A DNA stretch of 17,593 nt from Candidatus Zixiibacteriota bacterium (GCA_036170655.1 JAVHPP010000036.1:1-17593), one strand, 5' to 3'; shown: positions 468 to 17,593, counted from the stretch's first letter. Numbers and translations: made by a program. Notes: generated by a model from the letters alone, not told the origin.

Positions 468-1397
468 ATGATCGCCCAGAAACCAGATCCGGCTCAAGAC
501 CCCGGTGAGGACTTTCCCGGACAACAGGGCAGGAGGGAATGCACTCACGGACGTATCCCTTGGGATGGCGGACGCGCGATCCTCTATTTCATCCTGTCCG
601 GGTTGACGTCGATTCTGGTGGGAATCGTCCTCTTTGCGCCCCTGGGATTCAATGGATCGGTGATTGCCACAGAGGTTCTTGTCTTTGGCGTTCTGCCGCT
701 TCTTCTCAGCCGGGTCTTTGCCACCGGATGGCGTCAGTGGCTCACATGGCCGCAGGTGACCGGCAGATTCTGGATCTCGTCTGTCGTTGCTATTGTGGCA
801 TTTGTTGTGGTGCAGAGCAACCTGCTGGTCCTCTTCGATCGGATCTACCCGATTCCCAGCGCCCAACTCGAACTCTTTCGTCGTTACCTGACACCGGAGT
901 CTCCCATCGGTCTGGCGGGCATGATCAGCGTGGCCGCCATCGTCCCCGCCGTGTTCGAGGAAATCGCATTTCGCGGGCTGATTCAGTCGGGATTGAAGGC
1001 CACCTACGGTGCGCGTCATGCCGTCATCTGGACAGGCCTCCTCTTCGCCGTGTTGCACATGAATCCATGGAACCTGTTCGGATTGTGGTCACTGGGATGC
1101 CTGCTGGGCTATCTGACAGAACGAACCGGATCAATTCTGCCGGCTGTCTTCTTGCACCTGATCAACAATGTCCTGGCCCTTGTCCTCATCTACGCGCAGG
1201 GAGCACAGCAATGGGAGAAACGCCCCGAGTTCATCCCTTGGTACTGGACACTGCTTGCGGGATTGGTCATGATTGTCGCCATCCGTCAGCTCCACATCCT
1301 CACGCAGCGTCCGGTATCATTTCAGGCGGTGGAGTCGCGTGTTGAGGTTTCCAGTCAGGATATAGCCCCGCCCTCACCCCCTGTGTTCCCCTCGTGA
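468..1397 (+). CDS. CPBP family (CAAX/Abi-type) intramembrane glutamic endopeptidase
   Basis: 309 aa with multiple hydrophobic helices. Family motifs EEIAFRG (EExxxR), FAVLH (FxxxH) and HLINN (HxxxN) occur in the canonical order. Confidence 0.9.
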   Translation: MIAQKPDPAQDPGEDFPGQQGRRECTHGRIPWDGGRAILYFILSGLTSILVGIVLFAPLGFNGSVIATEVLVFGVLPLLLSRVFATGWRQWLTWPQVTGRFWISSVVAIVAFVVVQSNLLVLFDRIYPIPSAQLELFRRYLTPESPIGLAGMISVAAIVPAVFEEIAFRGLIQSGLKATYGARHAVIWTGLLFAVLHMNPWNLFGLWSLGCLLGYLTERTGSILPAVFLHLINNVLALVLIYAQGAQQWEKRPEFIPWYWTLLAGLVMIVAIRQLHILTQRPVSFQAVESRVEVSSQDIAPPSPPVFPS

Positions 1398-1505
1398 CAT
1401 GAGCGCACCCGGCCCGTTTTTTCAACACAAAGGGACTCTTTCCTCGTATGTTTAGCTTTGGTCGGTTCAGTACGATCAAGCGTTGTTGATACTGCTGGAG
1501 CACCC

Positions 1506-3329
1506 GTGGAAGCGCAAACATCGACAAATCACACTCCTGGCGTATCCTCTAAGCCGAATGTTCTCACCGAGTTGGATGACCCGGTCCGGCTCGATGGAAG
1601 AAGTGACGCCGAATTACTGATGGTTGCGGCAAGAGCCATGCATTCGACGCTCAGGTTGAACGACTTGTACGAGTTGATTCTTGGCGCCACGACTCGGTTG
1701 ACTGGATCTTCTGGATCCATTCTCATCATTCAGCGGCCACGCACTCACCACCCGATCATCTTCAAACTCCTGCATCGCGCGGGGCAGGTCATGGTCGACC
1801 TTCCTGCGTCCGTTGGCCACGCGCTCTTGGAGTGGCTCAAGACCCATGGTGACGCCGATGTCAACTTCGAGGACACGCCTGACTTTGTCTTAGCGGCGGC
1901 AAAAAACGCCATTGACGCCCCGTTCTCATCAATCCGGTGGTCACGCATGACCAACCGTGGGCATCTCCTTGGCGCGCTGGGAATTCTGGGAGGAGAGCAA
2001 GGGTACGGTCTGCGGGCGGATGCTTTGCTGCAGCCTTTGGCGGAACAGGCGGCCGTCGCCTTGGAGAATGCCATCCTCTATCGCCGGGCGGAGAGACAGT
2101 CACTGGAAACAGAGATTCTTCTCGAATCCAGCCGTCTGTTGATGTCCTCGTTAGACTTGGATGAAGTGCTGGACGCGATTATGGACTCACTGCAGAGAGC
2201 GGTCCCCTACAATGCGGCCGGCATCTTTCTCGTCAACGGCCATGGTGAAGTCGAGAGGATTGTGGACAGAGGATACGACCCTGACAGTCGGCAGGCGATT
2301 GAGGGCAAAGCGGGTCGCGGTCTCGTGGGCTGGGTTGCTTCGAGCGGAAAACCACTGGTGATCGACGATGTTTCGAAGGATCCTCGCTATCAGAAGGCAC
2401 GCCTCACAACGTGTTCTGAAATGGTCGTGCCGATTTTCGCCGGCGAGCATCTCGTTGGGGTATTCAATCTGGAACGGGATATTCCTGCCGGCTTCTTTGA
2501 GGCCGATCTCGATCTTGTTCATGCGTTTGCCCAGCACGCCGGCGTGGCCATCGAACGCGCGCGGATGCACGAAGCGTCTATGGAACAGCGTCGCATCAAG
2601 GCCGAATTGCAGGCCGCGCGCAACATCCAGACGAGCTTCCTCCCGGAAGAAAACCCGGCCATCGCCGGCTTTGACATCGCCGGGGTCAACATTCCCTCAG
2701 AGGAAGTCGGCGGCGACTACTACGATTTCATCCACATTGTCGAGGGCCAGTTCGGCGTGGCCATCGCCGATGTCTCTGGCAAGGGGATCCCTGCGGCCCT
2801 GATCATGGCGTCGTTCCGGGCGTCTTTGATCGCCGAAATCCGCAACAACTACGCGATCCGCAAGATCATGCAGAAGGTTAACCGCCTTCTGTGCGAGCGA
2901 AACGACAAGTCGCGCTTCGTGACCGGTATCTATGGAGTGCTGGACACCAGGAACGCCATCTTCACATTCAGCAACGCGGGTCATAACCCCGGCATTCTGC
3001 GACGCGCCGACGGCTCCGTTACTCTGCTGAAGGAAGGCGGCATGGCGCTGGGGATCTTCAAGGATGCCAAGTATGAAGAACGCGCGGTCGGGCTCGCACC
3101 GGGCGACATGGTGGTTCTTTACACGGATGGAGTGACGGAGGCTATAGGACGTGATGACAGCATGTTCGAGCTTGATCGCCTGATCGACATTCTGCACGCC
3201 AACTGTCAGCGTCCGGCGGGTGAGGTGATTCGTGCCGTTCAGACAGCGATCCAGGCGTTTGCCGATCCTTCTGCCGCGGTTGATGACATCACCATGGTCG
3301 TCATCCGCGTGCTTCAGCCCTCTGTATAA
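1506..3329 (+). CDS. GAF-GAF-PP2C (SpoIIE/RsbU-family) serine phosphatase
   Basis: Two GAF-like segments end in LAEQAAVALENA and FAQHAGVAIERA. PP2C motifs GGDYYD, ADVSGKG, NAGH, YTDG and DDIT are present. Start placed at the in-frame GTG 1506 after GGAG (1497-1500); the ORF track starts at TTG 1458. Confidence 0.9.
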   Translation: MEAQTSTNHTPGVSSKPNVLTELDDPVRLDGRSDAELLMVAARAMHSTLRLNDLYELILGATTRLTGSSGSILIIQRPRTHHPIIFKLLHRAGQVMVDLPASVGHALLEWLKTHGDADVNFEDTPDFVLAAAKNAIDAPFSSIRWSRMTNRGHLLGALGILGGEQGYGLRADALLQPLAEQAAVALENAILYRRAERQSLETEILLESSRLLMSSLDLDEVLDAIMDSLQRAVPYNAAGIFLVNGHGEVERIVDRGYDPDSRQAIEGKAGRGLVGWVASSGKPLVIDDVSKDPRYQKARLTTCSEMVVPIFAGEHLVGVFNLERDIPAGFFEADLDLVHAFAQHAGVAIERARMHEASMEQRRIKAELQAARNIQTSFLPEENPAIAGFDIAGVNIPSEEVGGDYYDFIHIVEGQFGVAIADVSGKGIPAALIMASFRASLIAEIRNNYAIRKIMQKVNRLLCERNDKSRFVTGIYGVLDTRNAIFTFSNAGHNPGILRRADGSVTLLKEGGMALGIFKDAKYEERAVGLAPGDMVVLYTDGVTEAIGRDDSMFELDRLIDILHANCQRPAGEVIRAVQTAIQAFADPSAAVDDITMVVIRVLQPSV

Positions 3330-3330
3330 T
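3325..3330 (+). promoter_or_regulatory. Possible -10 element (TATAAT) just upstream of tilS
   Basis: Perfect TATAAT overlapping the upstream stop codon, 6 nt before ATG 3337. No convincing -35 and no Shine-Dalgarno. Confidence 0.35.
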
Positions 3331-3336
3331 TAGAGC

Positions 3337-4806
3337 ATGTCTGAGAGAATCCCACCAGTGTCCCTTGTGGCTATTCCGGACGATTCCCGCCCGATTCCAC
3401 CATTGTCGGTGGCGAGGGACAAGTGTTCCCCGCAACTGGACACGTTGATGGCGTGTGTTAGAAGTTACTTCGGCCGCTATGGCCGCCCCGTAGATGGCGC
3501 GGGCGTGCTCGTGGCACTCTCCGGTGGACCGGATTCTGTCGCCCTGCTGTCGATCCTTCTTCGTTTGGCCAAGGAGTTCCGGTGGGTGATCGGCGCCGCG
3601 CACGTCAACTACGGGCTGCGAGGGGAAGAGTCAGACGAGGACGAGGCCTTCTGCCGTGAACTCTCACTCCGGTGGGGCGTAGCCTTCCATTGCCACCACG
3701 TGGAAGACGGGCAACGTTCAGCAGACGTCAACCTCCAGTTATGGGCACGTGCCATCCGTTATGCGTTTTTTGAGGAGGTTGCGTCCGCGCACGGCTACGA
3801 CAAGATTGCCACAGGGCATCATCTTGGCGATCGCGCAGAGACCGTGGCGGCAGCGGTTCTCGACGCGTCCGGCTCCTTCGCACTCAGCGGCATCCCGCCG
3901 TTCCGGGGACGTATCATCCGCCCACTTTTTGAATGCCGGCCCCAGATGATCCGCGACTACCTTTACGCGCACCAGATTCCTTTCCAAGTTGACCGGTCCA
4001 ACGGCACCATGCGGTATCGTCGCAATCGCATCCGTCTCCAGACCCTGCCCGAATGGTCAGAAGATAACCCGCGCATTGTCGAGGGTCTGGCGCGCTTGGG
4101 AGAACAACTCTGGCGCCAGCAGGTCTATCTCGAAAAGGAGGCGGATTGCCATCTGCAGGAAAGCGTGATCGGCAGGGAAACAGGCCGGATTCTCCTTGAT
4201 GCGGAGCGGTTATCGCGCTATGATTCCTGTTTGGACCCTTTCGTCCTGCGCCTGCTGATTCGCCAGATTGATCTGCAACTGGTGCCGACTCAGGCCACGG
4301 TCGACCGATTCTCCCGCCTGTGTCGTCGGAATGGTTCAGGGCGGGTCGAACAGGGAGACTTGATCCTCGAAAGGTCCAAAGGGCAGATGATGGCGATGCG
4401 ACGTATAGCTGATTCCGTTGTCCCCCTGCCACAGGTTCCGGTGATGGCGGGGGCGGTGACCATGTTCCCGAACTGGCGTTTCACATCTCAGGTGGTCGCC
4501 GGCCACGAGCCCGGCACGCACCATGATGACCGCGAAGTATCTTTGGATGCCGATTGTCTGCACGAGCCGCTCGTTATCAGACAGGGGGAAGCCGGTGATC
4601 GGTATCGGCCATTCGGACTGCATGGTACCAAGAAGTTATATGATCTACTCGCCGACCGGTCGGTCCCAGCGTTCGAACGGGGCCGAATCCCGGTTCTGTC
4701 AGACCAAGCGGGCGTTCTTTGGCCGGTCGGACATCCGATTGCCGAACGCGCCAGAGTCACAGACGCGACAAGACGCATTTTTCAGGTGAGGGCCACACGA
4801 GTATGA
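3337..4806 (+). CDS. tilS: tRNA(Ile)-lysidine synthetase
   Basis: PP-loop VALSGGPDS, HVNYGLR, GHHxxDxAET, IRPL, RNRIR, and a C-terminal TilS_C-like region (GDRYRPFG, KKLYDLL, RIPVL). Sits in tilS-hpt-ftsH synteny. The start may lie further downstream. Confidence 0.95.
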   Translation: MSERIPPVSLVAIPDDSRPIPPLSVARDKCSPQLDTLMACVRSYFGRYGRPVDGAGVLVALSGGPDSVALLSILLRLAKEFRWVIGAAHVNYGLRGEESDEDEAFCRELSLRWGVAFHCHHVEDGQRSADVNLQLWARAIRYAFFEEVASAHGYDKIATGHHLGDRAETVAAAVLDASGSFALSGIPPFRGRIIRPLFECRPQMIRDYLYAHQIPFQVDRSNGTMRYRRNRIRLQTLPEWSEDNPRIVEGLARLGEQLWRQQVYLEKEADCHLQESVIGRETGRILLDAERLSRYDSCLDPFVLRLLIRQIDLQLVPTQATVDRFSRLCRRNGSGRVEQGDLILERSKGQMMAMRRIADSVVPLPQVPVMAGAVTMFPNWRFTSQVVAGHEPGTHHDDREVSLDADCLHEPLVIRQGEAGDRYRPFGLHGTKKLYDLLADRSVPAFERGRIPVLSDQAGVLWPVGHPIAERARVTDATRRIFQVRATRV

Positions 4807-5399
4807 CCAATGCGCGACAGACAGAGACAGGCAGCGCGACGCCCTCTCATTCCGCGCCGACACGCGTGCTGATCACCGCTGATCAATTGCGGACCCGCGT
4901 CGCGGAGATCGCAGCGCAAATTGATGCGGATTTTGCCAATGAAACTCCCGTTCTGATTGGACTGCTGAAAGGAAGTTTTATTTTCTTGGCCGATCTATGC
5001 AGGGCCATGACCATACCCCATCTGGTCGATTTTATGGCCATCGCGGCCTACGGTGGAGGAACCTCGCCATCAGGGGGGGTGCGGCTGCTCAAGGACTTGA
5101 GCGTCAATATCACCGGACGGTCGGCCATTGTGGTGGAGGATATCATTGATTCGGGATTGACCATGGCCTATATCCACCGACTACTTATGGCTCGTCAGCC
5201 CAAGCGCTTAGCCATTGTTACCCTGCTCAGCAAAAAGAGCCGGCGCGCGACCGATTTGCCGATAGAATATGTGGGATTTGAGGTCGGTGGCGGATTTGTC
5301 GTCGGCTATGGGCTTGATTTGGCCGAGCGCTACCGTCACCTGCCACACATCGCTGAACTTGATTTGTCTGCCGCAGAGGAGATCCCCACTCGTGACTAA
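4803..5399 (+). CDS. hpt: Hypoxanthine phosphoribosyltransferase
   Basis: [16 protein letters not shown]-binding [12 protein letters not shown] and [13 protein letters not shown] motifs. ATG 4803 overlaps the tilS stop (ATGA). Confidence 0.96.
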
Positions 5400-7392
5400 T
5401 TCGCCCGTCGACCCAGCCAACGCTCCACGTCCGCCCCGCCCCGCCCGCCGCCCCGGCGATCCCGATGGCAAGCCGCCCTTCCCGTGGCGGCGCTCTTCGC
5501 GTACCCTGTTTCTCTGGGTGGCGCTGATCACGATGTCCGCGCTGCTCATCAACTACTACAATTTTGGGCGCGCGCCCCAAGCCGAGCTCACTTACACCGA
5601 ATTTATGGAGCAGCTCGACGCGGACAACGTCGATGCCATCACGCTGATTGACCGGAAGGTGGAAGGTTCCTTCAAGGTCGACATTCTCAAGACCGTCGGA
5701 CGCAAGAGCCGCAAGGTCCATGACTTCCGTATGCTCCTGCCGCTAACCGACCCTGCGCCGTTCCTGGCCCGTGTCGAGCAGAAAAGCGTCAAGATTTCGG
5801 CGCAAGAGGAGAGCTTTAACTGGACCAGTCTGCTTCTCGGATTTGCCCCCTGGGTGTTGATTCTGGTCTTCTTCTGGGTCTTCATGTTCCGTCAGATGCA
5901 GTCGGGGCCCAAGGGGATCTTCTCATTCGGGAAGAGTCGCGCCAAGCTGCTGGCCGAGGACAAGCCCAAAGTGACCTTCAGCGATGTGGCCGGTGCCGAA
6001 GAGGCCAAGGAGGAACTTGAGGAAATCATTGAGTTTCTGAAAGACCCGGGCCGTTTCCAGAAACTGGGAGGAAAAATCCCCAAAGGCGTGCTGCTTCTGG
6101 GGCCGCCGGGAACCGGCAAGACACTAATGGCCAGAGCGGTCGCCGGTGAGGCTGGTGTCCCCTTCTTCTCCATGAGCGGTTCCGACTTCGTCGAAATGTT
6201 CGTTGGCGTCGGCGCATCCCGTGTGCGCGACCTCTTCGAGCAGGGCAAAAAATCAGCGCCGTGCATCATCTTTATCGATGAGATTGATGCGGTCGGCCGT
6301 CATCGTGGCGCCGGCTTGGGTGGGGGGCACGACGAACGCGAACAGACGCTGAACCAGTTGCTCGTCGAGATGGATGGTTTTGAATCCAATGAGGGGGTCA
6401 TTCTGCTCGCGGCGACCAACCGGCCCGACGTGCTCGATCCGGCCCTGCTTCGTCCCGGACGGTTCGACCGTCAGGTTGTCGTCGACTCTCCCGATGTGCG
6501 CGGACGCGAGGGAATCTTCAGAGTCCATACACGCAAGATCCCTGTGGCCAGCGATGTGGACCTGCAAGTGCTCGCCCGTGGAACTCCCGGGTTGTCGGGT
6601 GCTGACATCGCCAATCTGGTCAATGAGGCCGCTTTACTGGCGGCCCGTCGCAACCGTGACAAGGTGATCATGTCCGATTTTGAAGACGCCAAGGATAAGG
6701 TCATGATGGGTACGGAGCGCCGGTCCTTGGTCATCACCGAAGAAGAGAAGAAGACAACCGCATACCACGAGGCCGGGCACGCGTTGGTCGGCAAACTAAC
6801 CCCGGGAACCGACCCGGTTCACAAGGTCACGATCATTCCCCGTGGAATGGCGCTCGGGCTCACGCATTTTCTGCCCATCAACGAGAATCACACGCATTCG
6901 AAGGAGTATCTCGAAGCCCGGCTGAGTTACACGATGGGTGGACGTGTCGCCGAAAAGCTCATTTTCGATTGTTACACGACCGGAGCCGGCAATGACATCG
7001 AGCAGGCCACGGCGCTGGCGCGAAAGATGGTTTGCGAGTGGGGTATGTCCGAAAAGCTTGGACCCCTCACATTCGGCAAGAAACAAGAAGAGATCTTCCT
7101 GGGCCGTGAGATCACCCAGCATCGTGATTACTCTGAGCAAACGGCGATTGTGATTGACGACGAGGTCAAGCGCATCATCACGGAAGCCGAAGCCAAAGCC
7201 ACCGGTCTCCTGTCCGAGAACATGGACAACCTGCACGCCATTGCGAAGGCACTGCTCGAGCGGGAATGCTTGGACGGTGAGGAAATCGACGCGATTCTGC
7301 GTGGAGAACCGCTGAGGAAGAAGCCGGCGCCCGTGATCTCTCCACAGGACCCTGAACCCAAGACATCGGCGCAGACCGCGAAGACGGTTTGA
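5392..7392 (+). CDS. ftsH: ATP-dependent zinc metalloprotease FtsH
   Basis: Two N-terminal TM helices, Walker A GPPGTGKT, pore FVG, Walker [12 protein letters not shown] region [10 protein letters not shown] and HEAGH zinc motif. Start placed at GTG 5392 after GAGGAG, overlapping the end of hpt. Confidence 0.98.
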
Positions 7393-7410
7393 ACGGCGCC
7401 GCCCACCGCG

Positions 7411-8256
7411 GTGATCGGCAGATCAATGCCCTTGCGGGACCAAATCCTGCCACTGTCCGGGAAGACGCGGATCATGGGAGTGCTCAACTGCACTCCTGAC
7501 TCCTTTTTTGACGGGGGGCGCTATCTCGACCAGCGAGCCGCTGTCGAGCAGGCGCGCCTTTTGATCCGCGAAGGAGCCGACATCCTCGATGTTGGCGGAG
7601 AGTCGTCAAGGCCCGGGGCCAGCCCCGTTGATCCGTCTGAACAGATCCGACGCACTGCACCCGTGATTGCCGCGATCCGCGCGTTCTGGCCGGGTCCCAT
7701 CTCGATTGACACGACATGCGCCGACGTTGCCCGTGCAGCCATCGCCGCTGGCGCGGGCTGGATCAACGACATCTCGGCGCTGCGTGACGATGCCGGTATG
7801 GTCTCGCTGGCCGCCGAGTCAGGCAGCATGTTGGTCCTGATGCACATGCAGGGCACACCCCGGACGATGCAGGCGGCCCCACATTATGAAGATGTCGTCG
7901 CCGAGGTTGGCCGCTTTCTTGCCGAGCGATCCTCTTTCGCGCAGAGCCGCGGGATCGCGTCCGATCGGCTGGTCATTGATCCCGGCATCGGTTTTGGCAA
8001 GCGCCCCGCCGACAACCTGACTCTTCTGCGCCATCTACCGGACCTCGTCTCAATGGGGTATCCTCTCTTGGTAGGGGCATCACACAAGTCATTCATCGGT
8101 CATGTGACGGGAGAAGGCCCCGAAGGGCGTCTCGAAGGGTCGCTGGTCGCCGCCATCTGGGCCGCGCGGCATGGAGCACAGATCGTCCGTGTCCATGACG
8201 TGGCCGCGACGCGCCGGGCTCTCATGGTGGCATCCGCCATATCCCAAGCCGAATAA
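7411..8256 (+). CDS. folP: Dihydropteroate synthase
   Basis: IMGVLNCTPDSF.DGG, DVGGESSRPG, ISIDT, INDIS, DPGIGFGK and VRVHDV motifs; ftsH-folP adjacency. Alternative start at ATG 7426. Confidence 0.97.
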   Translation: MIGRSMPLRDQILPLSGKTRIMGVLNCTPDSFFDGGRYLDQRAAVEQARLLIREGADILDVGGESSRPGASPVDPSEQIRRTAPVIAAIRAFWPGPISIDTTCADVARAAIAAGAGWINDISALRDDAGMVSLAAESGSMLVLMHMQGTPRTMQAAPHYEDVVAEVGRFLAERSSFAQSRGIASDRLVIDPGIGFGKRPADNLTLLRHLPDLVSMGYPLLVGASHKSFIGHVTGEGPEGRLEGSLVAAIWAARHGAQIVRVHDVAATRRALMVASAISQAE

Positions 8257-8290
8257 TTCGCCTGATTGTGTCGGCCCCGCCGCGTCACGA

Positions 8291-8319
8291 TTGACCCGGA
8301 CCGTTCTCCAGCGTAAGTT
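8291..8319 (+). promoter_or_regulatory. Putative sigma70-type promoter for cdaA and downstream genes
   Basis: TTGACC (8291-8296), a 17-nt spacer and TAAGTT (8314-8319) in the folP-cdaA intergenic gap. Confidence 0.55.
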
Positions 8320-8345
8320 GACGCTGTGGTCAGTCTTGAAGTCCG

Positions 8346-9122
8346 ATGGAGAATCTGACTGTGGTCCTGTTTCGCTATGGCTTTCTGCGCTTTGGGGTCA
8401 TCGACCTGGTCGATGTCCTTTTGGTGGCTTATATCTTCTACCGGCTGTTGTCCCTGATGAAGGGGACACGATCGGCACAGATGGCCACGGGGTTGGTTCT
8501 CGTCGGTATCATTTCTTTTCTGGCTTTCTGGTTCCGGCTGGAAGCATTAAAATGGCTCTTTGTCAACTTGGCGACGGTCGGGTTCATTGTGCTGGTCGTC
8601 GTCTTTCAACCGGAATTGCGCGGGGCGTTGGCACAGATCGGGCATTCGCGTGTATTCCGGTTTTTTTTCAAGCTGGAGGAACAGGCGGCTGCCGGCGAGA
8701 TTGTCAAGGCCGTGACCCGGTTGTCGGAGCTGGGTCACGGTGCGCTGATCGTTATTGAACGCAACGTCGGGTTGCGGAACATTGCTGAGACCGGAAAGGA
8801 TCTCAACGCCCGTGTATCGACAGAAATCCTCGTGACCCTGTTCACGCCGCACACACCGCTGCACGACGGCGCCGCTCTGCTGCGTGGCGAATTTGTGGTC
8901 GCGGCCGCATGCACGCTGCCGCTGACGACCCGTGAGGAGTTCACCAATCTCTACGGCATGCGTCACAAGGCCGCCATCGGTGTATCCGAGGTTTCCGATG
9001 CCGTCGTGCTGGTCGTCTCCGAAGAGACCAAAGAGATCTCGATCGCCTACAAGGGCGAATTGTACCGGCGTATCCAGCCCGACCGCCTGCGAGAGCATAT
9101 ACGGGTACTGATGGAAAGCTGA
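8346..9122 (+). CDS. cdaA: Membrane-bound diadenylate cyclase (c-di-AMP synthase, CdaA/DacA)
   Basis: Three N-terminal TM helices, FQPELR, GALIVIER, TPLHDGA (DGA motif), GMRHKAA (RHR-like motif) and VVSEET. Confidence 0.95.
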   Translation: MENLTVVLFRYGFLRFGVIDLVDVLLVAYIFYRLLSLMKGTRSAQMATGLVLVGIISFLAFWFRLEALKWLFVNLATVGFIVLVVVFQPELRGALAQIGHSRVFRFFFKLEEQAAAGEIVKAVTRLSELGHGALIVIERNVGLRNIAETGKDLNARVSTEILVTLFTPHTPLHDGAALLRGEFVVAAACTLPLTTREEFTNLYGMRHKAAIGVSEVSDAVVLVVSEETKEISIAYKGELYRRIQPDRLREHIRVLMES

Positions 9123-9148
9123 ACGGTAACCTCTGCAAGCGCGCAGAT

Positions 9149-10174
9149 ATGGAATTCGTCGATGAAGTCATAATCCAAGTGACGGCCGGTCATGGCGGCG
9201 GTGGTATCATCAGCTTCCGGCGCGAGAAGTTCGTCCCCAAAGGAGGACCTGACGGTGGCGATGGGGGCAAGGGCGGCGACATCATCGCCGAAGTCGATCC
9301 CAACCTCGCCACTCTCCTCGACCTGCGCTTCAAGAAACACATCAAGGCCGGACGGGGACGCCATGGCTCGGGTGGAGAGAGAAGCGGAGTCGGCGGGGCC
9401 GATGTCATCATGCGTGTCCCGCCGGGAACGCTGATATATGACGCCGATCATGAAAGCCTCCTGTGCGATCTCATTGAGCCAGGGGCGCGTGCGGTCATCG
9501 CCGCCGGAGGGAAGGGAGGCCGTGGTAATGCCCACTTCAAGTCGGCGACACGGCAATCCCCTCAGTTCTCCGAACTGGGTCAGCCCGGGAGGGCGCGGCG
9601 CGTCCGAATTGAATTGCACCTGATCGCTGACGTCGGACTGGTGGGGTATCCCAACGCCGGAAAGTCTACCCTCCTCCGTGCGGTCAGCGCCGCCGAGCCC
9701 AAGATCGGAGCCTACCCTTTCACAACGTTGCAGCCTCAGTTGGGGGTGGTCAAGAGACCGGGGTATCTGACCTTCACCGTCGCCGATCTCCCTGGCATCA
9801 TCGACGGGGCGCACGAAGGGCGCGGTCTGGGGTTGCGCTTCCTGCGTCACATTCAGCGCACCAAAGTGCTGCTCTTCCTCTTGGACATGGCCGCTGACTC
9901 TCCCGGAGACGATCTGGCGCATCTCCTGAGTGAACTGTCCGCTTTCGATCCTCTTCTTCTGAACAAGCCCCGGCTTGTGGTGCTGAACAAGTCCGATCTT
10001 GTCGATTCCAGTCTGCTGCATTCCCCGGATTACAGATTCGCCGATTTTGCGATCTCAGCCAAAGAAGGGCAGGGAGTGGAGTCAGTTCTCCAGGGGGTCG
10101 AGCGCATTCTCGCACGGTTCAAGAAGGACGCGGACGCAGTTGCGGCGGATCATTCTACCGGATCTGAAGCATGA
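9149..10174 (+). CDS. obgE: GTPase Obg/CgtA (short form without a long C-terminal domain)
   Basis: Gly-rich Obg fold (FRREKFVPKGGPDGGDGG, GGRGN), G1 GYPNAGKS, G2 YPFTT, G3 DLPG, G4 NKSD, G5 ISA. Confidence 0.97.
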   Translation: MEFVDEVIIQVTAGHGGGGIISFRREKFVPKGGPDGGDGGKGGDIIAEVDPNLATLLDLRFKKHIKAGRGRHGSGGERSGVGGADVIMRVPPGTLIYDADHESLLCDLIEPGARAVIAAGGKGGRGNAHFKSATRQSPQFSELGQPGRARRVRIELHLIADVGLVGYPNAGKSTLLRAVSAAEPKIGAYPFTTLQPQLGVVKRPGYLTFTVADLPGIIDGAHEGRGLGLRFLRHIQRTKVLLFLLDMAADSPGDDLAHLLSELSAFDPLLLNKPRLVVLNKSDLVDSSLLHSPDYRFADFAISAKEGQGVESVLQGVERILARFKKDADAVAADHSTGSEA

Positions 10175-11343
10175 TGGACGAAGCAAACGAGAGCGTCTTT
10201 CCGAGCCGGGAACTCCCAGTCTCTGGCGAGTCTGTTCCCGCTGCACAAATTCCCGGCGATGCCGAATACTGGCTGGCGCTCGCGCGGCTGCCGGGGGTGG
10301 GGCGCAAGACGTTCCTCAATCTGATTCAGGCATACAAATGTCCTAAAGCGGCGTGGGATCACTCCGATCGCGACTGGCAACAGGCGAAACTGCTGCGTGG
10401 CGGCATCAGCACGGTCTCCCATCGAGGCGAGGCGCTGGCATGGGCGGTCCGGCAGATCGAACGTCTGACCGCCAGCGATTGGCGCCTGCTTGTCTACGGA
10501 GGGATGGGATACCCGCGTGCTCTGGCAACTTTGGCGTACCCCCCGCCATTCCTGTTTACCGCCGGGCAATTGCCGCCGCAGCCGGCAATCGCTATCGTCG
10601 GTTCCCGGCAATGCACCGAGTACGGCATCAATGTGGCCCGGCAGATCGCCAGTGAACTGGCCGCCGCGGGGGTCTTGATTGTTTCGGGTTTCGCACGCGG
10701 GATCGATACCGCCGCGCACACGGCCGCGGTCGAGGCCGGCGGAGCGACAGTCGCGGTCTGGGGTTGCGGGCCCGACACCATCTATCCACACGAGAATAAG
10801 TCGCTCGTTCCTCGCATTCTCGAATGCGGGGGCATCGTGACCGAATTCCCCTTCGGTACGGCGCCCGAGCCGCAGAACTTCCCCGTGCGCAACCGCCTGA
10901 TCGCGGGGCTGTCCGCGGGGGTTTTGGTGGCTCAGGCGCGACAGAAGTCCGGAGCGTTGCTGACCGCCCAGCACGCCCTCGAGCAGGGCAAGGAAGTCTA
11001 CGCCGTCCCCGGTGAAATCGGCCGTCCCCAGTCCGCGGGCACAAACGAGTTGATCAAACAGGGCGCCAGAATCGTGACGGACGCCGGGGATATTCTCACG
11101 GACTTGGGGCTGCGGGCAACGCGCCATTCTGCCGCCGCTGCCATGCCCAGTCGACCACTGCCACCGCTGACACCCTTGGAACATCAGGTATGGGACGGAC
11201 TGGGATGTTCTGCTTGCCACATCGACCGGCTGGCCGTTTCTTTGAAACGGTCGGCCGCGGAGTGCGCCGCCGTGCTCCTGTCTTTGGAACTCAAGGGCAT
11301 TGTCAGACAGGCCGCGGGCAATATGTTCTCTCGCGTCGGCTGA
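10171..11343 (+). CDS. dprA: DNA-processing protein DprA/Smf
   Basis: N-terminal SAM-like LPGVG, IAIVGSR, IVSGFARGIDTAAH, NFPVRNRLIAGLS, SGALLTA, and a C-terminal winged helix (LLSLELKG). ATGA overlap with obgE. Confidence 0.96.
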   Translation: MMDEANESVFPSRELPVSGESVPAAQIPGDAEYWLALARLPGVGRKTFLNLIQAYKCPKAAWDHSDRDWQQAKLLRGGISTVSHRGEALAWAVRQIERLTASDWRLLVYGGMGYPRALATLAYPPPFLFTAGQLPPQPAIAIVGSRQCTEYGINVARQIASELAAAGVLIVSGFARGIDTAAHTAAVEAGGATVAVWGCGPDTIYPHENKSLVPRILECGGIVTEFPFGTAPEPQNFPVRNRLIAGLSAGVLVAQARQKSGALLTAQHALEQGKEVYAVPGEIGRPQSAGTNELIKQGARIVTDAGDILTDLGLRATRHSAAAAMPSRPLPPLTPLEHQVWDGLGCSACHIDRLAVSLKRSAAECAAVLLSLELKGIVRQAAGNMFSRVG

Positions 11344-11383
11344 CCGGCCACCGGCGACACCGTAACGAGCAGCCCCAGAAAAC

Positions 11384-11650
11384 GTGAACGAGCGCAAGGT
11401 GAAAGTCACAAACCCCCTTGGGGTTCATGCCCGCCCCGCAGCGATGCTGGTCCAAACCGCGGCCAAGTTCAAATCCGAAATCTGGTTTTCAAAGGACGGA
11501 TACGAAGTCAATGGCAAGAGCATGTTGGGAGTCATGACCCTGGCGGCCGAAATGGGATCGACCGTGACCATCCGTGCCGACGGGCCCGATGAAGACAAGG
11601 CGATCGAGGCCTTGGTGCGGGTGTTCGAAATGCGTTTTGGCGAAGCGTGA
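11384..11650 (+). CDS. ptsH: Phosphocarrier protein HPr
   Basis: 88 aa with GVHARPA (His15 site) and NGKSMLGV (Ser46 site). GTG start. Confidence 0.96.
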   Translation: MNERKVKVTNPLGVHARPAAMLVQTAAKFKSEIWFSKDGYEVNGKSMLGVMTLAAEMGSTVTIRADGPDEDKAIEALVRVFEMRFGEA

Positions 11651-11714
11651 TGTCTGAATGTTGCAATTATGCAGGTGCGTGGTCCGCTGAGCTGACTTTC
11701 GGTGGTTTCCGAGT

Positions 11715-13481
11715 ATGAATCCGATCATTACAGGGCGTCACGGTGAGAAAAGGCGCTGGAAGGGTGTCCCCGCGGCAGCGGGCATCGCGCTGGGACCGGC
11801 GATTGTCTACCGCGCGCGACAGGAAGAACCGGACCTGCGTCATCTCACCGGTGCGTCCGATGTCCCCGGCGAGTTGAAGCGGTTCGAAGACGCCCTTGCC
11901 TGCGTGCGTCAGGACTTGCTGCACCTCAAGGCCGAATCAGGCGGCTCCGTGCGGTCTGCCCTGGCGAAGATCTTCGATGCCCAAATCATGATTGTCGATG
12001 ACGCTGCCATCGTGGCGGAAGTCAAAAGGCTGATCGAACGCGACCACATTGCTGCTGAGAATGCCTTCGGTCAGGTGGTTGGCAATGCCCAGCGGTCGAT
12101 TGTGCGCGCAACCGATCCCTACCTGCGCGAAATGGTCAACGACATCCAGGCGGTCAAGACTCGAATCATCAACCGTCTCCTGGGTGTCGAAGCAACACTG
12201 AATCAGCCGCTCGCGTCGCCGGCCATCGTGCTGGCCGACAACATCACACCGGCCGACATCATCAGCCTCCGGCGTGATTGCGTGCTGGGCATCGTCACCG
12301 AGGGCGGAGGACAGACCTCCCACACGGCGCTCCTGGCCAAGTCACTGGGCATCCCGGCTGTGGTCGGTGTGGCATTGGACGTGCGGCGGGTTCGTTCGGG
12401 ACGGCTCGTTGCCGTTGACGGTTACAGCGGGATCGTGATTCTGGAGCCCGACGCCGCGACCATCGAGTTCTTCGAGAGGAAAAAGAGAAGGACATTAGCC
12501 CCTTGGCCAAAGAAGTACGGCGGCCTGCGCGACTTGCCCGCGGAAACAAAGGACCGCCACCGTCTCCAGTTGATGGCCAACATCGACTTGGGCGCCGAAG
12601 CGCCGACCGTGCTCGAGGCGGGCGCCGACGGCGTCGGGCTTTTTCGGACCGAGTACCTTTTCTTGGAGCGCGGGAAATACCCGACCGAAAAGCAGCAGCG
12701 TGATGTCTATGCCCAGACTGTCCGGGCCCTGCGTGGACGGCCTTTGGTCGTCAGGACATTCGACTTGGGAAGCGATAAGGCAATTCCGGGACATGTTCAG
12801 GAGACAAACCCCGCTCTGGCGTTGCGTGGAATTCGTCTCTCCTTGCGTTACCCCAATACGTTGAGTACGCAACTCCGCGCACTCCTGGCGGCATCAGCGC
12901 GGGGGCCGATCTGGGTCATGCTGCCGATGGTTATTGGTCCGGAGGAACTTCAGGACGCGATACATCACTGGTCGGCGGCCAAGGCCGCGCTCGCAAGCCG
13001 GGGGATCCGGTTCGACCGGAAAACGCCGCTGGGGATCATGGTGGAGACGCCATCGGCAGTTTGCATGATCGACGAACTCGCTCGGGCAGCCGATTTCCTG
13101 TCCATTGGGTCCAACGATCTCTTGCAATACACGCTGGCGATCGACCGTGGCAACAGCAGCGTGTCGCATCCCAGTGATTCCTGGCACCCGGCGCTCTGGA
13201 GGCAGATCGCCTCCGTGATCAAAGCGGGTCACCGGGCGAAGAAGCCCGTATCCGTCTGCGGTGAAATCGCCACCAATCGGATGATGATTCCCATTCTTCT
13301 GGGACTCGGCATCGATTCCCTGTCCTGCCACCCGAACTCGGTCCCGGTGATCAAGAGCATGATCCGTTCTGTGAGATATGCCGAGCTCAAGCTGGCAGCC
13401 AGAGAGTTCCTCACGCTCGCTTCCGAACTGGACGCGAGGGGGTTCGCTTACGATCTGGCCCGTCGGCTGGGTATCAGGTGA
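11715..13481 (+). CDS. ptsI: Phosphoenolpyruvate-protein phosphotransferase (PTS Enzyme I)
   Basis: GGQTSHTALLA phospho-His motif, GVGLFRTE, RTFDLGSDK, GIMVETP, SIGSNDLLQY and VCGE. No N-terminal GAF, so not the long Ntr-type PtsP. Confidence 0.95.
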   Translation: MNPIITGRHGEKRRWKGVPAAAGIALGPAIVYRARQEEPDLRHLTGASDVPGELKRFEDALACVRQDLLHLKAESGGSVRSALAKIFDAQIMIVDDAAIVAEVKRLIERDHIAAENAFGQVVGNAQRSIVRATDPYLREMVNDIQAVKTRIINRLLGVEATLNQPLASPAIVLADNITPADIISLRRDCVLGIVTEGGGQTSHTALLAKSLGIPAVVGVALDVRRVRSGRLVAVDGYSGIVILEPDAATIEFFERKKRRTLAPWPKKYGGLRDLPAETKDRHRLQLMANIDLGAEAPTVLEAGADGVGLFRTEYLFLERGKYPTEKQQRDVYAQTVRALRGRPLVVRTFDLGSDKAIPGHVQETNPALALRGIRLSLRYPNTLSTQLRALLAASARGPIWVMLPMVIGPEELQDAIHHWSAAKAALASRGIRFDRKTPLGIMVETPSAVCMIDELARAADFLSIGSNDLLQYTLAIDRGNSSVSHPSDSWHPALWRQIASVIKAGHRAKKPVSVCGEIATNRMMIPILLGLGIDSLSCHPNSVPVIKSMIRSVRYAELKLAAREFLTLASELDARGFAYDLARRLGIR

Positions 13482-13506
13482 TCACGGGTTCATCTCTGGA
13501 GTGTCG

Positions 13507-14628
13507 TTGACCAACGCGAGAACAACTCAGTATACGCTAACGCTGCTCGATGACCCAGAGCGTCATCGGTCGTTGGATCGCGGATCGATGCATGACGCCA
13601 TCGTGGCGTTCCCCGGACATCTCCGCGAGTCGGTGCGTCTGGCCACTGCGGTTGACTGGTCCGCTTACAAACCAACGACACCGCAGGGCATTTGTATTTG
13701 CGGCATGGGCGGATCGGCCATTGGGGGTGATCTGGCGCGGTCCTACTGGGAATCAGAGTCGCCGATACCTATCATTGTGGTGCGCAACGACCGGTTGCCC
13801 GCCTACGTCAACGATCACTGGTTTGTCATCGCTTCGAGCTATTCCGGCGACACCGAGGAGACGCTGTCGGCTGTCAGCGAAGCGGCCCATCGGGGCTGCC
13901 GGCGGATTCTGGCTCTGGCCGCCGGTGGACGGCTGGTATCACTGGCCGAGGAGAAACGCTGGGCGTTCGTGCGTCTCCCCGGCGGGTTGATGCCGCGCGC
14001 GTCATTGGGTTTTTCCTTCGGCGTCGTGATGCTCACACTGGCCGACTGGGGGGTCTCCGGCAACAACGCGATGGAGTTGGCAGAACAGGTGTCGTCCCTC
14101 TTGGCAGATTCCGCGTCGCTTCTCGCAGCCCGTGGCCCGCATCTTGATCGCCTGTGCCCGTCTGGTGAGAATCTTGCCAAACAGACAGCCGCCGCGCTCG
14201 CCGGACGTGTCGTCGTGGTCCTCGGTTCCACGGGCACGACCGACGTCATCGCCACGCGGTTCAAGACGCAACTTTGCGAGAACGCGAAGGCGCTCGCCTT
14301 TGCGAACGCGTTCCCGGAAGTCACACACAACGAGATTGTCGGTCTCGCCGCCTTCGCCGATGCCGCCGATCGTCTGGCCGTTCTCATTCTATCCTCTGAC
14401 GACGACCACCCAGGCGCGGCCACACGGCAGGAGGCAATGGCGCGCATCCTGCAAGCCCAGGGGATACCTGTTGCGTCCCTTCGGGCCGAAGGGTGCAATC
14501 GCCTCGAGCGGATGCTCTCGCTGGTCCAGTTGGGTGATTTCATCAGCTACCATCTGGCCATCCTCACGGACCATGACCCCACCCCCATCGCCGCCATCGA
14601 GGCGTTGAAGCGATCGCTCCCACGCTGA
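13507..14628 (+). CDS. Bifunctional phosphoglucose/phosphomannose isomerase (two SIS domains)
   Basis: CGMGGSAIGG, SSYSGDTEET, PRAS, QLCENAK, PEVTHNEIVG and GDFISYHLA motifs. Start placed at the in-frame TTG 13507 after GGAG; the ORF-track start 13378 overlaps ptsI by about 100 nt. Confidence 0.9.
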   Translation: MTNARTTQYTLTLLDDPERHRSLDRGSMHDAIVAFPGHLRESVRLATAVDWSAYKPTTPQGICICGMGGSAIGGDLARSYWESESPIPIIVVRNDRLPAYVNDHWFVIASSYSGDTEETLSAVSEAAHRGCRRILALAAGGRLVSLAEEKRWAFVRLPGGLMPRASLGFSFGVVMLTLADWGVSGNNAMELAEQVSSLLADSASLLAARGPHLDRLCPSGENLAKQTAAALAGRVVVVLGSTGTTDVIATRFKTQLCENAKALAFANAFPEVTHNEIVGLAAFADAADRLAVLILSSDDDHPGAATRQEAMARILQAQGIPVASLRAEGCNRLERMLSLVQLGDFISYHLAILTDHDPTPIAAIEALKRSLPR

Positions 14629-14650: not shown

Positions 14651-15574
14651 ATGCCCGTGACCTTGCCAGACAAACAGGCCAGAATCGCCGGGGTAACTCC
14701 CACGGATGTTTTCTTGGGTGGCTGGCTGGCGCTGGTGGTGTCGCGATGGCTTCTGCCCACTTGCACGCCGTGCGGGGCAGCGGCCATCGCGCATGCCGGA
14801 CTGTTTCGCATGGAACGACTCAACGCCCTTGTTCTCTGTGTGATCTTCGCGGCGGCCGTCCTCTGGTACATTGCCCATGCACGGCGCGGCGGGACGATCT
14901 ACATTCGTCCGTTGCCGGGGCTGTCCGCGGTCGATGAGGCCGTCGGGCGCGCCACCGAAATGGGACGTCCCGTCGTCTTCATTCCCGGCACCGGAGACTT
15001 GGACGAGATCCAGACCATCGCGGGATTGTCGGTCTTGGGGCGCGTTGCGCGGGTCACGGCGCGCTATGCCACGCCCTTGCGCGTGCCGGTCCTGTACCCG
15101 CTCCCGATGGCGGCGGCGCGGGAGACAGTCCGCGAGGCGTATCTCGACGAAGGCGTGGAATACGTGGATCCGGAGACCGTCCAGTATGTCGCCGGCGAGT
15201 CATTTTCCTACGCGGCGCGTGTCGGCGGGATGATGCTGCGTGAACGTCCTGCCGCGGTCATTTACATGGGCCAGTTCACCGCTGAGTCGTTGCTGATTGC
15301 CGAGGTAGGACAGTCGACTGGAGCAATCCAGATTGCCGGCACCGCCGCGCCCGATCAGATGCCGTTCTTCATTGCCGCCTGCGATTACACGCTCATCGGC
15401 GAGGAACTCTATGCCGCCAGCGCCTATCTCTCAGGCGATCCGAAGATGCTCGGCTCATTGAAGGGTCAGGATGTGATAAAGATCCTGCTGGCCGCCGCGG
15501 TCGTGATCGGTGTCCTGTCGGTCACCTTGGGCTGGGGCAGCGCCTGGTTGATGGCTGCCTTTGAGGCGAAGTAG
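14651..15574 (+). CDS. Uncharacterised membrane-anchored protein, DUF6754-like (cassette subunit A)
   Basis: Signal-like N-terminus, one TM, a soluble alpha/beta region and a C-terminal TM. YIRPLPGLSAVDEAVGRATEMGRP and CDYTLIGEELYAASAYLS resemble DUF6754 proteins as I recall them; not verified by search. Start uncertain. Confidence 0.75.
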   Translation: MPVTLPDKQARIAGVTPTDVFLGGWLALVVSRWLLPTCTPCGAAAIAHAGLFRMERLNALVLCVIFAAAVLWYIAHARRGGTIYIRPLPGLSAVDEAVGRATEMGRPVVFIPGTGDLDEIQTIAGLSVLGRVARVTARYATPLRVPVLYPLPMAAARETVREAYLDEGVEYVDPETVQYVAGESFSYAARVGGMMLRERPAAVIYMGQFTAESLLIAEVGQSTGAIQIAGTAAPDQMPFFIAACDYTLIGEELYAASAYLSGDPKMLGSLKGQDVIKILLAAAVVIGVLSVTLGWGSAWLMAAFEAK

Positions 15575-15594
15575 CCGGGAGTCTGCCGCCCTCT

Positions 15595-16215
15595 ATGAAG
15601 ACCCGTCTTCCTGTCGTCGTCGCGTTCGTCTCGGGGGCGCTCATGATTCTGTCTTTTTTCGGACGGGGTCCCTTGGTCGATTCTGCTTCGGAGGTCGCGC
15701 TGACTTGGCAGACCATTGTGGGGGGATTCTCTCTGCTGTTGGGGGCTGTGTCCATCGTGCGCGTGCATTGGCGGCGCGTTGCGACCCGTGAGCGGGACCG
15801 GTTTTATTCCCTGTCTCTGCTGGTTTGTTTCGTGGTGATGGCGGGTTCCGGCGTTTTCTTCGGCATCGAACGAGGCACCGTCTTCGAGCGTCTGTTCAAC
15901 ACCATCCAGAGCCCGATGATGTCGACCATGTTCTCTCTCTTGGCGTTCTTTATTGCGTCGGCGGCCTATCGGGCGTTCCGCGCCCGCTCCGTCACCTCGG
16001 CGATTCTCTTGCTGACGGCATTGGTCGTCATGCTCGGCCGGATTCCGATGGGGCAGCTGATCTATTCACAGCTCCCGGCGTGGGCCGATTGGGTGATGTC
16101 CATTCCCTCGATGGCGGTCCAGCGAGGCATCCTCATCGGCGCGGCGCTGGGGGCCGCGTCGATGTCCCTGCGGCTGATTCTGGGCATTGAGCGAACCTAC
16201 CTGGGGCGGGGATGA
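15595..16215 (+). CDS. Uncharacterised integral membrane protein, about 6 TM (cassette subunit B)
   Basis: 206 aa, very hydrophobic, with Arg-rich loops (RRVATRERDR, AYRAFRARS). GGGAG upstream and ATGA coupling to the next gene. Confidence 0.85.
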   Translation: MKTRLPVVVAFVSGALMILSFFGRGPLVDSASEVALTWQTIVGGFSLLLGAVSIVRVHWRRVATRERDRFYSLSLLVCFVVMAGSGVFFGIERGTVFERLFNTIQSPMMSTMFSLLAFFIASAAYRAFRARSVTSAILLLTALVVMLGRIPMGQLIYSQLPAWADWVMSIPSMAVQRGILIGAALGAASMSLRLILGIERTYLGRG

Positions 16216-17102
16216 AGAGCGGCAACCGCGCCGATCACACCCCTGCCGGGCGTTCCTTCTGGGATCGTCTCCAGACGGTGGACCGGCGCATCCTCTACAC
16301 GCTGATCTTTGCCGCCGTGATCATTCCGGTGCTGTGGCCCCTCCATCTGCCCACCCCGACCACCCCGGAGTCACAAGCGTTCTTCAACGCGGTCGATAGT
16401 ATTCCCGCTGGGTCTGTCGTCCTTTTCCCTTTTGATTTCTGGCCTTCCACACTGGCCGAGACCGAGCCGATGGCCATTGCCGGTCTGCGGCATTGCTTCC
16501 GGAAAAACCTGCGCATCGTGGGGCTGTCGAATGTTGGCATGGGTGGTCCCACCATCGCAGAGCGGCTTCTCGACTCGATCGGCGGGGAGTACAAGAAGAC
16601 CTACGGCGTGGACTATGTTAATCTCGGTTACAAGGCCAACTACTCCGCGGTCCTGCTCGGGATGGGAACGCGCATCGCGGACATCTTCCCGACTGATCAC
16701 AGGGGGACGCCGATCGGCGATCTCCCTCTGATGCAGCATGTGCCCAACTATGATTCCGTCCGGTTTGTGCTGATCATCTCGGACAATGCCATGGTCGACT
16801 ACTGGGTGGCGCTGGTCAACGCACGCTTCGGGTTGCCGATGGTGGCCGGTGTCACGGCGGTTATGGCGCCGAAGGCGCTTTCATACATCCAGTCCCGCCA
16901 GCTCCTCGGATTGCTCGGTGGCATGAAGGGCGCGGCTGAATATGAGCAGTTGACCGGACTGGCGGACAGAGCAACCCGTGGCATGGATGCTCAGTCGCTG
17001 GTCCACTTCCTGATCATTCTGTTCGTCCTCATGGGCAATACGGGATACTTTGTCATACGTCACAGACAGCGCCATCTTCCGTTGGGGGGCGTGAGACCAT
17101 GA
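16212..17102 (+). CDS. Uncharacterised protein with N- and C-terminal TM helices and a central soluble domain (cassette subunit C)
   Basis: 296 aa: DRRILY then a TM, an alpha/beta-like core (VLFPFDFWPS, YGVDYVNLGY), LLGGMKGAAEYE and a terminal TM. ATGA overlaps on both sides. Confidence 0.85.
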   Translation: MKSGNRADHTPAGRSFWDRLQTVDRRILYTLIFAAVIIPVLWPLHLPTPTTPESQAFFNAVDSIPAGSVVLFPFDFWPSTLAETEPMAIAGLRHCFRKNLRIVGLSNVGMGGPTIAERLLDSIGGEYKKTYGVDYVNLGYKANYSAVLLGMGTRIADIFPTDHRGTPIGDLPLMQHVPNYDSVRFVLIISDNAMVDYWVALVNARFGLPMVAGVTAVMAPKALSYIQSRQLLGLLGGMKGAAEYEQLTGLADRATRGMDAQSLVHFLIILFVLMGNTGYFVIRHRQRHLPLGGVRP

Positions 17103-17593
17103 CGGACTGGCTGTCGCACCAGTTTCCATTCTTCCTGACGATGGTGACGGCGTTTTTCACGCTGGCAATCTTCTCGTTTCTCTATCGGGACAATCCGTTT
17201 TTCAAGTTCGCCGAGCATGTCTTCGCGGGGTTGTCCGCGGGTTATTACTTCGGTCTGATTTATCAGTCGGTCATTGTCCAACAAGTCTGGTTTCCGCTCA
17301 CCCACAACGGGCAATGGAGCGTTCTGATCCCCGGCGCGCTGGGCCTTCTCATGTTCGCCCGGTTCATCCCGCGCATCGGCTGGACAACCCGGCTTCCTCT
17401 TGCCTTCGTCATCGGCAGCACGGCCGGGATCATGTTCATCCAGCAGTTGCACGGCGTCATTCTTCCCCAGGTCGGGCGCACATTCCTCACGCTGGGGTCG
17501 CTGAACAACATCCTGATCGTCGCGGGTGTGCTGTCAACTTTGATCTACTTCTACTTTTCCAAGCCACACACCGGACCGCTGGGGTGGGTGGCG
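17099..17593 (+). CDS. Uncharacterised integral membrane protein, truncated by the window end (cassette subunit D)
   Basis: Not in the ORF track. Hand translation from ATG 17099 (ATGA overlap) is open for 165 codons to the window end: MTDWLSHQFPFFLTMVTAFFTLAIFSFLYRDNPFFKFAEHVFAGLSAGYY...LIYFYFSKPHTGPLGWVA, with at least 5 hydrophobic helices. Confidence 0.88.
   Translation, partial: MTDWLSHQFPFFLTMVTAFFTLAIFSFLYRDNPFFKFAEHVFAGLSAGYYFGLIYQSVIVQQVWFPLTHNGQWSVLIPGALGLLMFARFIPRIGWTTRLPLAFVIGSTAGIMFIQQLHGVILPQVGRTFLTLGSLNNILIVAGVLSTLIYFYFSKPHTGPLGWVA

Follow-up and report, generated by a model that had tools for sequence, protein, structure and literature searches.

A four-gene DUF6754 membrane module of Candidatus Zixiibacteriota, probably part of an eight-gene system with a GlmL-like actin-fold ATPase

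The DNA analysed here, referred to as the window, is the whole of contig C36 (17,593 nt) of G000, the genome of a Candidatus Zixiibacteriota bacterium, and the subject of this report is a cassette of four genes, A to D, which lies on its + strand and runs to the end of the contig. Subunit A is a DUF6754 protein of 307 amino acids encoded at 14651..15574, its start being unsettled between 14651 and a later codon. After an intergenic gap of 20 nt, the polytopic subunit B (206 amino acids, about six membrane helices) is encoded at 15595..16215; it is followed by C (296 amino acids; 16212..17102), in which a Rossmann-like domain stands between two membrane helices, and by D, a second polytopic protein that is still open at the window end (165 amino acids; 17099..17593). 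B and C, like C and D, are joined by an ATGA stop/start overlap on the + strand (16212..16215 and 17099..17102, respectively). These assignments are based on open reading frame (ORF) calls, together with a Pfam match for A, hydropathy for B and D and a model for C. Reading frames, gap and overlaps all lie where the original prediction, made by a model from the sequence, had placed them. A look at the downstream sequence for further subunits had also been suggested there; D was found to run on into another contig of G000, C65, which overlaps the window by 85 nt with one mismatch. This adds 42 residues and gives a protein of about 207 amino acids, and the gene after D on that contig is no further conserved subunit.

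The suggested resemblance of A to DUF6754 proved to be a clear membership, with a match to PF20539 over residues 49-295 (14795..15535, + strand; E-value 6e-105) that scores 350.5 bits against a gathering cut-off of 27; no function has been described for this family. For B, C and D, nothing in Pfam or NCBIfam scored above cut-off. Hydropathy agrees with the earlier description of A and C as proteins in which a soluble domain is flanked by membrane helices, two main ones in each, and of B and D as polytopic proteins with several. A has an additional weak hydrophobic stretch at its N-terminus (residues 12-30) and carries a short N-terminal extension where many homologues bear FN3 or beta-propeller ectodomains. 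In B, the motifs ATMFxLLAFFIASAAYRAFRAR and QRAIxIG are conserved.

Whether the four families cluster in other genomes had been named beforehand as a possible refutation of the original prediction, and it was found that they do. Among the loci gathered, 253 distinct copies of A have at least 3 kb of downstream sequence, and in 243 of these B, C and D trail A on the same strand within 6 kb, in the order A-B-C-D; of the ten copies that depart from this, four have C or D elsewhere in the genome. Such conservation of order far exceeds chance. In some Zixibacteria (L043:11414-12715, L045 and L079), unrelated genes, including a DNA-methyltransferase-like ORF, lie between the cassette genes, with the order intact.

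The close relatives of A are labelled candidate division Zixibacteria by their sources, and three to six DUF6754 matches per genome were found in all 31 genomes searched (G000 and its relatives). G000 itself carries four cassettes, on C36, as a tandem pair on C171/C144 and on C15, which have diverged to 28-52% identity subunit by subunit. The most divergent is that on C15 (L004:5589-10319), which lies 3' of a gene for a large propeller protein and two PorV/UPF0164-like genes. Farther afield, 80 loci span Zixibacteria, WOR-3, Eisenbacteria, Fermentibacteria, Marinimicrobia, Armatimonadota, Phycisphaerae, Riflebacteria, Vicinamibacteria, Deltaproteobacteria and others, and a profile search found 2555 clusters at 50% identity. 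In the ESM Atlas, C and D fall in unnamed clusters only, whose labels include Bathyarchaeota, Chloroflexota and Bacillota, with few recorded members, archaea being represented by label only. Subunit B occurs in named cultured Planctomycetes.

Four further genes recur beside the cassette. M encodes a protein of about 600 amino acids that matches PF13941 (MutL/GlmL), a predicted GlmL/MutL-like ATPase with the actin fold (ASKHA); E encodes a protein of 375 amino acids with a weak match to a biotin/lipoyl hybrid motif (E-value 3e-5); and c13 and c8 encode two small proteins. Neither E nor c13 nor c8 matches any Pfam or NCBIfam family above cut-off. Complete operons read c13-c8-A-B-C-D-M-E in L123 and A-B-C-D-c13-c8-M-E in L132, and many permutations of the eight-gene operon are found in several phyla. 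G000 has a single M and a single E (contig C5) and a single c13 and c8 (contig C21), as against its four A-D modules. It is highly probable that A-D make up the membrane portion of an eight-gene system linked to M. The original prediction was right that the four genes are real, and fell short in taking them as the entire unit, the four other genes of the system, one of them for an ATPase, being located elsewhere in the genome. In some Armatimonadota (L347:4657-6515, L135:6565-7927 and L208), c13-c8-A occurs with no B, C or D nearby, and the A of these loci has a zinc-ribbon-like N-terminus in place of an exported domain.

M is recognised by PF13941 with an E-value of 4e-129 (431.9 bits; cut-off 27), has a mean identity of 62% and keeps the ASKHA motifs, namely phosphate-1 in 73, phosphate-2 in 74 and adenosine in 68 of 74 sequences. 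In this it resembles the GlmL/MutL and Or-4 accessory proteins (PF13941, NF040745, NF040744), from which it differs in its length with a C-terminal extension, in its pairing with E and in tracking A rather than a mutase. It lies below the NCBIfam equivalog cut-offs for GlmL (228.9 vs 475 bits, E-value 1e-67), Or-4 (216.1 vs 600, E-value 7e-64) and TIGR01319 (179.6 vs 204). Glutamate mutase E (PF06368) was not found in G000, which is 100% complete by markers, in a search whose control matched weakly and in one genome; PF09043 (lysine/ornithine aminomutase) gave no match in G000, nor in any control genome. Judged by these comparisons, namely its wide shortfall against the cut-offs for GlmL and Or-4 and the absence of a glutamate mutase E match in G000, M is not GlmL proper. 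Open frames of 937-1330 amino acids over M were considered as fusion proteins and rejected as upstream stop-free stretches. A second, divergent M/E pair with no adjoining A-D, whose E has a long insertion, was seen in four genomes of the phylum sample of G032 (L340:7390-10358, L341, L342:1995-5014 and L343:4391-7329); it is possibly a sister system.

Presence and absence of the genes were compared in three phylum samples of 101, 101 and 121 genomes, and A and M were concordant in 318 of these 323. In the first sample, both were present in 40 genomes and neither in 61, one sub-cut-off match to A (G081, E-value 2e-4) having been excluded from the count. The Armatimonadota sample gave 88 genomes with both, two with M only and 11 with neither, and the third sample 31 with both, two with A only, one with a weak M only and 87 with neither. 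C matches exactly the 40 A-positive genomes of the first sample and D exactly the 33 of the 121-genome sample, 31 of which also have E; the search for E gave one fragment besides. As a control, enzyme I of the phosphotransferase system (PTS) was shared with A in 33 of the 40 genomes and was discordant in 14 of the 101 (seven A-positive genomes without enzyme I and seven enzyme-I genomes without A), as opposed to none of the same 101 for M. Clade structure accounts for much of the co-occurrence in the phylum of this control, yet M had no disagreements there.

AlphaFold (AF2) models of A and C are of high predicted local distance difference test values (pLDDT 93.7 and 96.1) and show an identical order of elements, namely membrane helix, helix, six alternating strands and helices, membrane helix. 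Both resemble generic Rossmann-like chains, with 1kjn as a common match (Z 9.7), along with several RCK/KTN and SDR domains. The best VIA-align Z scores were 10.1 for A and 9.7 for C, no match being clearly ahead, and the RCK-type hits of both (Z 8-9.4) are tied with SDR, GT-B and sirtuin folds. Foldseek gave no match at an E-value of 1e-3 for A and 16 generic Rossmann matches with TM of about 0.3 for C, and profile searches of solved structures, made with the alignments of all four cassette subunits as well as with M and E, returned nothing below an E-value of 0.1. In profile-profile comparison, B against D was not significant, nor was A against C, the best E-value of which was 0.086 for a local alignment in the expected register. 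RCK domains are also found among RCK/KTN-gated K+ transporters (KtrAB, TrkA, MthK, KefC); the likeness of A and C to these is shared with dozens of unrelated Rossmann folds, and the domain of C is predicted to lie outside the cell. The TxGYG-type motif forms the K+ selectivity filter; it is absent from the consensus of B and D over 312 cassettes.

In the same 312 cassettes, lysine plus arginine counts are 3.8 after helix 1 of A and 0.4 after its helix 2, and 3.1 before helix 1 of C, 0.9 after it and 3.3 after helix 2. On this bias, read by the positive-inside rule, and on the exported FN3 and propeller domains at the N-terminus of many A homologues, the domain of A is predicted to be cytoplasmic and that of C extracytoplasmic. 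In this prediction, A and C carry one and the same Rossmann-like domain on opposite sides of the membrane, and B and D form the core. No other part of the membrane module is as conserved as the domain of A, which has a mean identity of 58%, compared with 42% for D, 41% for B and 35% for the domain of C; E stands at 50%. B and D have conserved polar residues within or beside their helices, and each tolerates large insertions in one loop (FG-GAP-like, WD40, HhH). Homologues of B and D with a loop insertion of 200-400 residues were seen to carry repeat-propeller-like, WD40, helix-hairpin-helix or unknown helical domains (for example L066:18705-20480; P0322; P0423 and P0425; P0295 and P0370). Stand-alone extra copies of C occur in several genomes of the phylum sample of G031 (L221-L223; G057, G031, G045 and G051), which suggests that they are exchangeable outer domains.

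Coevolution between subunits was analysed in 304 paired cassettes, with an effective number of sequences (Neff) of 245, eight of the 312 having been dropped for gaps; positions are given as alignment columns. The strongest coupling was B78-D33 (z 13.1), accompanied by its helical neighbour B74-D29 (z 10.2), and further couplings were C216-D120 (z 11.3), B129-C11 (z 10.3), B118-D17 (z 9.4) and, between A and D, A40-D158 (z 9.1) and A40-D156 (z 8.0). Six clade-preserving shuffles peaked at z 7.5-9.4. Five of the seven top pairs gained in z with more data, and the loop-loop pairs among them connect ends predicted to lie on the same side of the membrane. Among 39 long relatives of D, four are C-D fusions, two of which, 61% identical to each other, have an additional hydrophobic linker helix, which the predicted topology calls for; one of the four resembles a deletion. 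An apparent A-B fusion (P0311) was not counted, its linker reading like a frameshift, and neither was P0393, which looks like a deletion. A single hetero-oligomeric machine is supported by the conserved gene order, the same genome distribution of A, C and D, the top inter-subunit couplings and the C-D fusions, and A-D likely assemble into one inner-membrane complex. To this extent the analysis supports the original prediction that the four proteins form one hetero-oligomeric machine in the membrane, of unclassified family, the complex being only the membrane part of the ATPase-linked system of eight genes.

In the mechanism proposed here, this complex likely imports a solute and is likely driven by M, the actin-fold ATPase that resembles GlmL, together with E. 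M and E would dock on the highly conserved cytoplasmic domain of A, while the variable outer domain of C and the exchangeable ectodomains of A would face the substrate, and paralogous modules may share one energiser, by analogy with group II ECF importers, in which several exchangeable membrane modules are served by a single energising module. An ATP-driven solute importer with interchangeable A-D modules and a shared M/E energiser is given a probability of roughly 0.5; it is put first since a single conserved pair in the cytoplasm serves several modules that are variable and face outwards. The likeness to group II ECF importers is one of logic only, with four modules per single M/E in G000; here an ATPase with the actin fold would supply the energy, a module consists of four subunits, and A-D, M, E, c13 and c8 gave no Pfam or NCBIfam match to an ABC-type ATPase, BPD_transp, EcfT or an S-component. 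We know of no solute transporter class that is energised by an actin-fold ATPase. More tentatively, the system may represent a new class of primary active transporter, in which an ATPase of the actin/Hsp70 fold would power interchangeable four-subunit modules with an inverted Rossmann-like pair, in many bacterial phyla and probably in archaea. Some lineage-specific neighbours, namely a family-5 solute-binding protein 3' of four loci, a TonB-dependent receptor with ExbB 3' of five and glycine cleavage P 5' of eight, point to the uptake of amino-acid or peptide-like nutrients.

Several observations weigh against the importer or against a single complex. Clustering of the 499 flanking genes gave 311 groups, most of them housekeeping or restricted to a lineage, and none of them is a substrate-linked neighbour conserved across phyla; nor does the system include a conserved solute-binding protein. 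The solute transporter of the original prediction is also the best guess here; no evidence of a substrate or of transport was found. The coevolution alignment is shallow, and only about four pairs exceed the noise. Two random shuffles peaked at z 9.8 and 10.6; in a first run with 256 cassettes the best real pair reached z 11.4 and the controls 10.0-10.4; and the 133 real couplings above z 5 compare with 84-128 in controls, not above some controls. The linker helix is absent from the C-D fusion P0395. Homology of A and C is undetectable by profile, the likeness of their models being one of element order. In two genomes (G289 and G292), A and D are present and M and E were not found, and in all the co-occurrence counts related genomes are not independent, and phylum structure inflates the agreement. 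Finally, retention of the system is near-universal in Zixibacteria (31/31) and in the Armatimonadota sample (88/101), which a core role in the envelope would fit equally well.

Such a role is the basis of a less probable alternative, in which this ATPase-coupled complex serves envelope biogenesis and exports, flips or assembles a surface protein, lipid or glycan, with the ectodomains of A as scaffolds. FN3, BamB-like propeller, FG-GAP, WD40 and HhH repeats are indeed typical of envelope scaffolds, and NlpC/P60, SLBB/polysaccharide export, PorV/UPF0164 and Omp85 genes are among the neighbours; yet the distribution is patchy in two of the three phyla sampled (40/101 and 33/121), the labels Bacillota, Chloroflexota and Bathyarchaeota, few as their recorded members are, stand for differing envelopes, and no conserved outer-membrane or glycosyltransferase partner occurs among the flanking genes. 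A transmembrane sensor, in which C and the ectodomain of A would bind an external ligand and signal through B and D to the cytoplasmic domain of A and an M/E switch, is rather unlikely. The many receptor-like modules per cytoplasmic pair and the variable ectodomains would suit it, as would Rossmann-like domains on both faces, whose many tied fold hits include RCK/KTN regulatory domains, but no output domain, be it a kinase, a cyclase, a DNA-binding domain or another, is encoded by the eight genes, and a pair of polytopic subunits whose helices contain or adjoin conserved polar residues exceeds the usual needs of signalling.

The remaining readings are much less probable still. Complexes of the Rnf/Nqr type, with soluble and several membrane subunits, are similar in outline to this system, and the hybrid-motif match of E would recall a peripheral subunit like RnfC or NqrA; that the system is such an ion-translocating or energy-converting complex is nevertheless very doubtful, as no subunit has Fe-S cysteine clusters or flavin-binding or redox family matches, and no RnfD/E/A-type membrane family was matched. 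It is even harder to see in M a genuine reactivase of the GlmL type that serves a B12 mutase, with its link to A-D incidental or with A-D supplying cobalamin: the matches to PF13941, GlmL and Or-4 models would agree with this, but the scores fall far short of the curated cut-offs, the mutase subunit is missing from the matches in G000, and genomes with true short GlmL-type proteins additionally carry the long M. Least credible is that this copy is a new kind of PTS permease, fed by HPr and enzyme I from the genes immediately 5' of it. It is true that ptsH, ptsI and PGI/PMI lie directly 5' of the cassette here and at 13 related loci, and that G000 yielded no EIIC of the two families tested despite its HPr and enzyme I genes; this arrangement is confined to one paralogue clade, however, only one of the four paralogous modules lies at such a site, enzyme I often disagrees with A as described above, and A-D have no match to an EII family.

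The PTS genes and PGI/PMI end a co-directional housekeeping run at 468-14628 of the window, which comprises genes for a CAAX protease-like protein, a GAF-SpoIIE phosphatase, tilS, a phosphoribosyltransferase, ftsH, folP, a cdaA-type diadenylate cyclase, obgE, dprA, HPr, PTS enzyme I and PGI/PMI. On the other side, contig C65 (L001) carries 3' of D putative lipoproteins, an ammonia-lyase-like gene and a TPR protein, and farther along ExbB, two ExbD, two TonB-like and cysteine-metabolism genes, as labelled by sequence inspection. The block of lipoprotein, TPR and ExbBD genes of L001 is also present in L017, L031 and L034.

A literature search limited to open-access papers, by titles and abstract starts, found no paper describing DUF6754 or the system. 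In a study of essential genes in Planctopirus (PMC10632474), the supplement files searched held no match. No characterised homologue, solved structure or paper was found, and in the comparisons above the system does not group with ABC/ECF, PTS, Rnf/Nqr or GlmL systems. It is open to experiment, in that cultured Planctomycetes carry B and natural C-D fusions ease expression. In these genomes, M is probably mis-annotated as a helper of B12 mutases. Present in every Zixibacteria genome tested and in most genomes of the Armatimonadota sample, a conserved machine of eight genes would fill a major gap in the physiology of poorly cultured phyla.

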